Part shown: piece after piece, positions 10,371 through 11,026 of the stretch
How positions within the stretch are numbered: the first letter of the stretch is position 1
Layout of the letters: each line of letters starts with the position of its first letter
From: a virus
Lineage: Duplodnaviria > Heunggongvirae > Uroviricota > Caudoviricetes
Strand: one strand, 5' to 3'
Length of the DNA: 14,909 bases
Virus record (IMG/VR): IMGVR_UViG_2869976549_000004
Coordinates: 1-14,909 of that record
Translations under genes and position numbers: made by a program
Notes under the pieces: model-generated
What the model saw: the letters and a program-made list of their open reading frames with translations, nothing else
Databases searched by the model: none
Told to the model about the DNA's origin: nothing

Positions 10371-10394
10371 AAAAAAACCCGCATAAAGCGGGCT
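10371..10394 (-). terminator. Intrinsic terminator, tR'-like, about 78 nt downstream of the putative Q gene
   Basis: Minus-strand agcccgc-uuuau-gcggg followed by UUUUUUUA. Confidence 0.6.
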
Positions 10395-10471
10395 CTTTCA
10401 AATGTCCATGTCTGCTATTCGCCTCGCGGTACAGCTTTGCGAAGCGTACAAGAATTGAAGCAGTTTTTACG

Positions 10472-11026
10472 TCAAAAAGCAATAACTTTTTTCTCTATAC
10501 CAAAAGCCATAACCATTGGTTTGTACAAAATAAATTCTGCCACCTTTAGCCAATGCTCAATGCGTCTTTCACAGGTTCTTAAACTCCATTTCGGGTGTGC
10601 ATCATTCAGCAGTTCAGCCATTTTGCGTTTGGTCATCCCCCGCCCCTCATACCGTTGCCGAAGGACGCTAATCAATCCTGGATGCTCTGCCAGCACCTCA
10701 CTTATGACCCGATCAATACATAACGCCTCTGCATCAGTACAATGCGCCAGCCAGCTCTTTTGCTTACCGTTAATCATATCCCGCAAAAAAGCCTCAAGTT
10801 CAGACTTGTTCAGACCTGCTTTTTTCATCCTCCGGAGCGCCTCGTTAATTGCCGTTTTTGTCAGCTTTTTAGAGGTCAACATCAGGTTAAACATATTCCC
10901 CGTCTTACCGCCACCAATATACGACCAGCGCCCCCACATACGTAGTTTTCCCTGAATCCAGACACTTTCCAGCGTGGTGAGACGAAGGTGTTCTCCGCTT
11001 TTTCCTGTATTCGTTGGGTAAATCAT
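10472..11026 (-). CDS. Q: Putative late-gene antiterminator Q (assigned by position; family not verified)
   Basis: 184 aa from the ATG at 11026, preceded by SD AGGAGGG and overlapping the ybcO-like stop (ATGA). Sits between nin-type genes and the terminator/tRNA/lysis block. The ORF-track version (224 aa) would overlap the upstream gene by about 120 nt. Confidence 0.45.
   Translation of the reverse strand: MIYPTNTGKSGEHLRLTTLESVWIQGKLRMWGRWSYIGGGKTGNMFNLMLTSKKLTKTAINEALRRMKKAGLNKSELEAFLRDMINGKQKSWLAHCTDAEALCIDRVISEVLAEHPGLISVLRQRYEGRGMTKRKMAELLNDAHPKWSLRTCERRIEHWLKVAEFILYKPMVMAFGIEKKVIAF

Follow-up and report, generated by a model that had tools for sequence, protein, structure and literature searches.

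The window analysed here is the whole of a 14,909-nucleotide stretch of a Caudoviricetes genome (IMG/VR record IMGVR_UViG_2869976549_000004, positions 1 to 14,909), and the subject of this work is its late regulatory module, which comprises a gene for a 184-residue protein on the minus strand, the DNA around the stop codon of this gene, and the terminator that follows. The module is a conventional Q-dependent cassette, and its regulator comes from the uncharacterised but widespread DUF1133 branch of the lineage of the phage 21 antiterminator Q (Q21). We consider it likely that the region is the late-gene cassette of a defective lambdoid prophage, with a regulator that works like Q21. This reading is carried by computed results, namely the homology of the protein to Q21, a conserved array of promoter, -10-like element and terminator, and the gene order.

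The 184-residue protein and its relation to phage 21 Q

10472..11026, minus strand: Q-like antiterminator gene of the DUF1133 family, a remote homologue of phage 21 Q (translation of 184 amino acids plus the stop codon; Pfam)

The first-pass annotation, made from the sequence alone, had set this protein in the place of Q, after ybcO and before a terminator, tRNA genes and the lysis genes, and the calls of the open reading frame (ORF) and its neighbours confirm that position. The ATG overlaps the stop codon of ybcO (ATGA) and is preceded by a ribosome-binding site, AAGGAGG; MIYP is the N-terminus in all homologues. The statement that the protein cannot be placed in a known Q family no longer holds. 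It is a DUF1133 protein over its full length (PF06576, 356.7 bits against a cut-off of 23.1, 2e-107, with residues [1-176] on profile positions 1-176 of 176), it matches PHROG 753, 'anti-termination protein Q-like', at 9e-80, and it is a remote homologue of Q21. A search against the Q-family profiles met the 21-type family PF06530 (Phage_antitermQ, the Q21/Q933W family) at residues [69-163] with 29.4 bits for a gathering cut-off of 26. The Pfam search (E <= 0.01) gave no match to the lambda Q family PF03589 (numbered as in bioRxiv 10.1101/651190) or to the Q82-type family PF06323, and an NCBIfam search of the protein gave no match. The zinc-binding Cys cluster of lambda Q is absent, as the annotation had observed; there are three cysteines, C96, C103 and C152, and no CxxC pair.

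The earlier guess of a Q21-type antiterminator was borne out by PF06530 and by further comparisons. Phage 21 Q chains were the sole matches in the Protein Data Bank (PDB) at E below 0.4 for the single-sequence query (E 4e-4), and a 13-sequence DUF1133 profile (hmmsearch against PDB) found Q21 chains at up to E 1.2e-7. The DUF1133 alignment and the Q21-family alignment were joined by hhalign at 98.1% (E 1.3e-13), residues [13-183] corresponding to [5-157] of Q21. The identity between the window protein and Q21 is 25-28%, and a phmmer search of 1.84 billion representatives, which gave 70 relatives at E <= 0.001 (50% identity representatives), did not reach Q21, so that profile methods are required to see the link. 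Q21 itself, from the phage 21 record OL657228, has a PF06530 match of 87.4 bits together with a near-threshold DUF1133 match (22 bits against 23.1). Both Pfam matches are found in most Q21 relatives of a large protein collection, a few of which even bear the name 'DUF1133 family protein', and the two families overlap reciprocally. By its sequence, the 184-residue protein is a divergent DUF1133 member of the phage 21 Q (Q21/Q933W) lineage and not a relative of lambda Q or Q82.

The DUF1133 family is narrow in sequence yet abundant. Pfam and the NCBI annotation pipeline PGAP label it as of unknown function. Phage annotators and PHROG 753 already describe the gene as Q-like, and phage records name it 'antitermination protein Q'. 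DUF1133 is not among the three families of the Q census by Yin et al. (bioRxiv 10.1101/651190).

Structures of Q21 are available as PDB entries 6P18, 6P19, 6JNX and 6JNY. With residue roles taken from PMC6606751 and bioRxiv 10.1101/651190, Q21 and the window protein correspond as follows.

Q21 W26, contact with the beta-prime dock: W34 in the window protein, invariant
Q21 S93, K94 and T125, contacts with the DNA backbone: T132, K133 and T151, kept
Q21 H95, A124, R127 and R128, readers of DNA bases: R134, R150, E153 and R154, which vary across DUF1133
Q21 R113, L3 loop, minor groove: absent from the window protein
Q21 S29 and T54, torus and RNA contact: I37 and W92, not conserved
Q21 I83 and I97: V121 and M136

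The joint alignment also shows an N-terminal L..W..G.L..WG.W motif (WGxW) common to the window protein and Q21, while DUF1133 and Q21 share a C..D motif and the C-terminal helix TC...(I/V)..(W/I)L, a helix-turn-helix with a TC motif. The core of the recognition helix is TCERR in the window protein and TCRRE in Q21. In a Foldseek search against PDB the top 10 matches were all Q21 chains (E ~1e-3, TM 0.42-0.58) and the next match had E > 1; the alignment behind the second of two AlphaFold models held Q21 relatives and was not fully independent, and the fold is taken as weak support.

A conserved array at the end of the Q gene

We fetched 199 loci with DUF1133 proteins 40-100% identical to that of the window and compared the DNA around each stop codon. 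A fixed array lies after or over the Q stop codon in 170-177 of the 199 loci. It consists of TTG(nnn), 17 nt, TGnTTnAAT, 5 variable nt and TAnGCT, and it is followed by a terminator 63-78 nt further on. The corresponding elements of the window are listed below.

10477..10482, minus strand: proposed -35, TTGCTT, inside the last codons of Q
10460..10476, minus strand: spacer, TTTGACGTAAAAACTGC
10468..10475, minus strand: candidate Q-binding element TTGACGTA, which contains TTGACG, at spacer positions -28..-21, the same place as QBEu of phage 21
10454..10462, minus strand: extended -10-like element TGCTTCAAT, that is TG-C-TTCAAT, with TG at -15/-14
10454..10459, minus strand: proposed -10 hexamer, TTCAAT
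10443..10448, minus strand: -10-like hexamer TACGCT at -1..+5, a candidate sigma-dependent pause element (SDPE)
10371..10447, minus strand: predicted 77-nt leader RNA, from A10447 to the end of the U-run (minimum free energy -29.3 kcal/mol, z-score -3.7)
10420..10446, minus strand: 5' hairpin of the leader in the predicted fold
10371..10399, minus strand: intrinsic terminator tR', a hairpin and U-run (RNAfold and RNAalifold)

The late promoter of phage 21 has the following layout.

-35: TTGACA, 7 nt after the Q stop codon in the annotated record
Q-binding element (QBE): ATTGAGCA and AATGAGCA, a pair of direct repeats inside the spacer
-10: AACACT (weak), 17 nt after the -35
Start: A at +1, with the SDPE TAAGCT at +2..+7
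Terminator end: about 50 nt from the start, with tRNAs and then the S21 holin downstream

TGnTnnAAT was found near the Q stop codon in 177 of the 199 loci. Among 90 unique related sequences, TTG at -35..-33 is conserved at 91-94%, always 17 nt from the -10 hexamer, and TG at -15/-14 at 93-96%, with flanking positions that vary freely; across the extended -10 element the conservation per position is 93-98%. Conservation of the second hexamer was counted with the upstream motif alone as anchor, which avoids circularity. The second hexamer, exactly 5 nt on, is nearly invariant in 80 unique sequences (T in 78, A in 79, any base, G in 77, C in 78 and T in 78). The start of the array relative to the stop codon differs by group (-4, +12, +17 or +19), so that the array is not explained by coding constraint. 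The most divergent members have a proper -10 (TAAGAT or TACGAT) as their first hexamer, 16 nt after TTGACA or TTGACT, and 7 nt further on a second TAAGAT or TAAGCT, spaced as in phage 21. A search of the window for the composite pattern gave a single occurrence, at 10443..10482, and 200 shuffles gave none.

The hexamer TTnAAT has T at -11 in 97% of the 90 unique related promoters and is always preceded by TGn. The -10 can also be read in another register, as TnAATT with an 18-nt spacer, which gives TAAATT in half of the sequences and TCAATT in the window. A simple sigma-70 promoter scan of 10395..10480 found no consensus pair, in agreement with the earlier remark that a convincing -10 was missing; the same scan also missed the terminator supported by RNAfold. 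In most DUF1133 groups (P0121- and P0134-type loci, such as L121 and L085), the 3' end of the Q frame contains the -35, the candidate Q-binding element and the -10, whose hexamer includes the stop codon. As the promoter occupies the final ~12 codons, the DNA there would be dual-coded, for the promoter and for the conserved C-terminal tail RFYLxS...

The first-pass annotation had pointed to TTGACG as the possible -35. The hexamer is indeed present at 10470..10475 (minus strand), over the TGA stop codon [10472..10474], at spacer positions -28..-23. It has five of the six consensus bases, a TTGACT -35 does overlap the Q stop in isrK-type relatives, and lambda and phage 21 have their -35 directly behind Q; on this reading an unrecognised -10 would lie about 17 nt downstream. 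However, TTGACG is an unlikely -35 because of its spacing to the two conserved -10-like hexamers (10 nt to the first, 21 nt to the second) and because it is not conserved, being TTTACG in the closest sister group and different again in other groups. The hexamers 16-18 nt downstream of it, TCTTGT, CTTGTA and TTGTAC, fall within the most variable stretch across the loci, and the simple scan found nothing at TTGACG. We regard a late promoter with its -35 at this place as very unlikely; the conserved TTG lies instead 17 nt before TGnTTnAAT.

TTGACG is part of TTGACGTA, for which a role as Q-binding element is suggested by its variation. The spacer stretch -28..-21 differs between groups and tracks the core of the recognition helix, as listed here.

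TCRRR or TSRRR, 21 loci: (A/G)nTGAGCC
TCERR, 51 loci including the window: TTTGACGT or GTTGTCGC (TTGACGT or TTGTCGC)
TCEKR, 29 loci: TTTTACGC
TCESR or TCETR, 86 loci: nnTTGCGCG
TCQRR, 4 loci: TTTGACAT or GTTGACCT
TCRRE (Q21): ATTGAGCA

The TGAGCC of the TCRRR group resembles the TGAGCA subsites of Q21, and some DUF1133 groups carry AGTGAGCC-AGTGACTG repeats. The first two variable positions of the helix correspond to R127 and R128 of Q21, which read bases (PMC6606751). The association of helix and spacer persists through domain shuffling. Two loci, L109 and L104, share 94% identity over the N-terminal 140 residues and 72% over the C-terminal part, and both helix and spacer differ between them. 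The window protein and P0013 have 89% N-terminal against 61% C-terminal identity, and their promoters are entirely different. This pattern fits an exchange of the recognition helix and its putative site as one module.

Start site, leader RNA and the proposed switch

The invariant A of the second hexamer, A10447, follows a T at a distance of 7 nt from the first hexamer, and it aligns with the cloned 5' end of Gifsy-1 IsrK. Based on this distance and this alignment, +1 is predicted to be A10447, and the position of TACGCT would suit an SDPE. The pause element of lambda lies at +1..+6. The isrK gene was cloned 'from its transcription start site' with primer ACGCCAGCAAAATCTG (PMC4825925); at the same position the window reads ACGCTTCGCAAAGCTG against ACGCCAGCAAAATCTG in Gifsy-1.

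An alternative is that TACGCT (10448..10443) is itself the true -10, with a start near 10436, and that TGCTTCAAT is part of the Q-binding site. In favour of this, the A at -11 and the T at -7 of TAnGCT are canonical, unlike the T at -11 of TTnAAT. The position of TGCTTCAAT would become -26..-18, the place of the upstream Q21 subsite (-25..-20), and its reverse complement, ATTGAAGCA, resembles the Q21 subsite ATTGAGCA. Yet TAnGCT has no conserved -35-like hexamer 16-18 nt ahead of it, while TTnAAT does have a conserved TTG 17 nt ahead, and in the divergent members it is the first element that is a proper -10, 16 nt after TTGACA or TTGACT. TGnTTnAAT also remains unchanged across groups with different recognition helices, which is unexpected for a specificity site; no conserved -10-like pause element lies behind a start at 10436, and the IsrK 5' end aligns with A10447. 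This arrangement is unlikely, and we retain TTCAAT as the proposed -10 and A10447 as the predicted start.

The predicted leader ends in a terminator with a 12-bp stem in the predicted fold. The leader is 63-78 nt long in 168 of 170 loci, and compensatory changes at 5 of 8 pairs preserve the pairing of the terminator stem (RNAalifold). In a MAFFT alignment of 29 leaders, RNAalifold did not support a common 5' hairpin, though each group can fold one. The Rfam isrK family (RF01394) matches 10372..10445 at 19.9 bits for a cut-off of 50, and the leader is not a member of it; no sequence similarity of the leader to StxS or 6S RNA was detected. The small RNAs (sRNAs) AgvB and AsxR were considered as identities of the leader and dropped, since both map to the moron insertion site, which is further downstream. 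Late promoters are well known to give short terminated RNAs, namely lambda 6S, StxS and IsrK (PMC7547250). In the lambda Q/6S and Q933W/StxS systems, pR' is constitutive, the pause is sigma-dependent, a terminator lies nearby and a short RNA arises as a by-product (PMC7547250, PMC6606751). This is the arrangement predicted for the window, although lambda Q belongs to a different, zinc-binding family.

In Gifsy-1, a constitutive promoter directly after the Q gene (antQ) makes a 77-nt terminated RNA, IsrK, with partial read-through (PMC4825925); the window likewise has its proposed promoter directly behind the Q gene and a predicted 77-nt terminated leader. The idea that Gifsy-1 AntQ is a DUF1133 protein was ruled out, as the primer sequences of PMC4825925 lead to a 225-residue PF06323 protein (396 bits) unrelated to DUF1133, and Gifsy-1 therefore gives only an analogy for the start site.

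The same promoter, PisrK, and the isrK leader were observed behind two unrelated Q genes, a DUF1133 gene (L076, 3052..3164) and the PF06323 gene antQ (L205, minus strand, around the antQ stop codon). In the loci L076-L080, the DUF1133 gene is 88% identical to that of the window, with the helix ATCRNRIDAW, and behind it lie a canonical TTGACT-18-TATATT promoter and a genuine isrK (74.4 bits in L076, for the Rfam cut-off of 50). Homology between L076-type and antQ loci starts exactly at the -35, and their spacers, CAAACAGTTATCCGGGG and CAATCTGTTATCCGGGG, differ by two bases. Two unrelated Q proteins may work from almost identical spacers, or else one of the combinations is a dead hybrid. If PisrK is truly served by two Q families, site recognition would be convergent or loading independent of the spacer.

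Promoter activity, start site, pausing, binding site, antitermination and a Q21-style nozzle are all inferred here from homology and comparative anatomy, and the steps would be as follows. The C-terminal helix-turn-helix of the DUF1133 protein would bind the late-promoter spacer, with TTGACGTA at 10475..10468 as the candidate site. RNA polymerase would start near A10447 and be held by sigma-70 re-binding TACGCT at -1..+5, and the bound protein would transfer to the paused polymerase. The polymerase so modified would pass the terminator at 10371..10399 and transcribe the tRNAs and the holin, endolysin and spanin genes; without the DUF1133 protein, the promoter would yield the 77-nt terminated leader only. 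The order of genes and proposed elements is that of phage 21: Q, pR' with the QBE at or over the Q stop, SDPE, tR', tRNAs (which occupy the same position in phage 21), S21-type holin, endolysin and Rz. The two differ in the position of the -10-like element (-1..+5 in the window, +2..+7 in phage 21), in the length of the leader (77 nt against about 50 nt) and in the direct TGAGCA repeat of the spacer, which phage 21 has and the window does not.

Several observations weigh against this reading. The PF06530 score is marginal (29.4 for a cut-off of 26), and a literature search found no experiment on any DUF1133 protein, only one paper with a table entry based on HHpred. The window protein has a 32-residue insertion [57-88] after H2, in the H2-H3 linker, which Q21 does not have; the corresponding linker forms part of the Q21 torus, or 'nozzle' (PMC6606751, bioRxiv 10.1101/651190). 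Moreover, 14 residues of the Q21 L3 loop, R113 included, are missing, and the torus residues S29 and T54 are not conserved. The two AlphaFold models of the window protein have pLDDT values of 54 and 55, with block means >80 only for residues ~130-160. At the promoter, the proposed -10 has T or C at -11, where sigma-70 promoters almost always have A; the window spacer TTTGACGTAAAAACTGC is without the two direct TGAGCA repeats, 8 bp apart, of the Q21 site; and the covariation of helix and spacer could be plain linkage, the two being about 100 nt apart. A close DUF1133 variant adjoins the same promoter that serves an unrelated Q. Finally, insertion sequence (IS) elements cut the late operon and the region upstream, and the module may no longer switch in this genome.

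Some of these points could be taken to mean that the protein is no antiterminator, being either an activator of the late promoter that resembles sigma region 4 or an inert remnant in a decaying prophage. The Q21 fold has been likened to sigma region 4 bound to anti-sigma (PMC6606751), DUF1133 has a remodelled version of the torus-forming linker and has not retained the torus residues, and six IS copies (IS600-like, IS1 and IS21) disrupt the prophage. Against this, the promoter of 170 of the 199 loci is followed at a short, fixed distance by a terminator, which makes sense only with control of read-through; the dock-contact Trp and the helix-turn-helix are conserved; and the ORF is intact, with identical copies in many Shigella records (P0001) and related genes in 1730 of 5426 complete E. 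coli genomes. We give this explanation the least credence of those considered. It is also rather doubtful, if somewhat less so than the other alternatives, that DUF1133 is a structurally distinct Q branch, in which the two-helix insertion in the nozzle-forming linker and the loss of the L3 DNA loop may build a different device at the RNA-exit channel, or loading may proceed from a single sequence-specific subsite beside an atypical extended -10 with a pause element that overlaps the start. A Q21-like antiterminator remains our preferred reading.

Prophage context and distribution

The remaining features of the window are listed below.

11313..11912, minus strand: DUF1367/NinB-like nin-region gene (profile matches)
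11023..11313, minus strand: ybcO, nin-region gene (PF07102)
9972..10282, minus strand: four tRNA genes, Met-CAT, Arg-TCT, Thr-TGT and Gly-TCC, downstream of tR'
8526..9789, plus strand: IS3-family insertion of 1264 bp between the tRNAs and the holin, one of three identical copies
8197..8574, minus strand: P21-type holin ORF (PF04971 at 5e-35; the Pfam match covers residues 59-121)
7700..8197, minus strand: lysozyme (PF00959 at 9e-45)
7236..7715, minus strand: Rz spanin (PF03245 at 3e-30)
7236..8574, minus strand: whole phage-21-type lysis cassette (holin, lysozyme and Rz)
13155..14418: IS3-family copy, identical to the other 1264-bp copies
12248..13015: second IS1
3531..5500: IS21-family element (IstA/IstB), by which the large terminase subunit (5582..5926) is truncated
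1438..2317 and 3086..3439: IS3-family copy, split in two by IS1
2318..3085: IS1 inside this third IS3-family copy

The holin, lysozyme and Rz matches uphold the earlier description of the lysis cassette as phage-21-type. The prophage is defective and disrupted by IS elements, with six IS copies within the 15 kb of the window: the IS3-family copy at 8526..9789 interrupts the late operon, and an IS1 cuts the DNA ahead of the nin genes. The IS3-family transposase ORF has rve and HTH_21 domains (copy at 1481..2299), and the three elements are probably IS600. Such an IS load is a pattern typical of Shigella, and the closest protein records to the 184-residue protein are from Shigella sonnei.

Related DNA is found in 1730 of 5426 complete E. 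coli genomes, with the PGAP label 'DUF1133 family protein', and the gene is likewise present in prophages of Shigella, Salmonella and Klebsiella and in some Stx phages. An apparent orphan in about a third of complete E. coli genomes can thus be read as a Q21-type late-gene switch. Explicit coordinates for the proposed promoter, pause element, candidate binding site and leader RNA make its late-gene control testable, and likewise toxin control in those Stx phages. The placement of DUF1133 also suggests that the Q21 lineage is undercounted when a Q census draws on three Pfam families.

Further elements were noticed around the module. A promoter-like pair, TTTGCA-18 nt-TATTAT, is located at 10292..10321 (minus strand), between tR' and tRNA-Met, and could drive expression of the tRNAs independently of Q. 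In the interval from tRNA-Gly to the IS insertion, at 9853..9925 (minus strand), ATGAATGATCGC ... GCGATCATTCAT form a long inverted repeat accompanied by a T-run; it may represent another terminator or a remnant of the sRNA region of the moron site. In related prophages, Rfam sok (hok/sok) lies upstream of the Q region (L059 835..1009, L076 754..903), and STnc100, rydB and C4 antisense RNAs lie downstream of the late promoter (L076 4197..4353, L104, L109, L099; L076 3192..3276, L114 33..123). Record PP818812.1 (Actinobacillus phage vB_Apl-pPE4), labelled as a phage of Actinobacillus pleuropneumoniae, holds at 14928..15526 a Q region of the E. coli/Shigella type with 93% DNA identity, which is unexpected for a Pasteurellaceae host.

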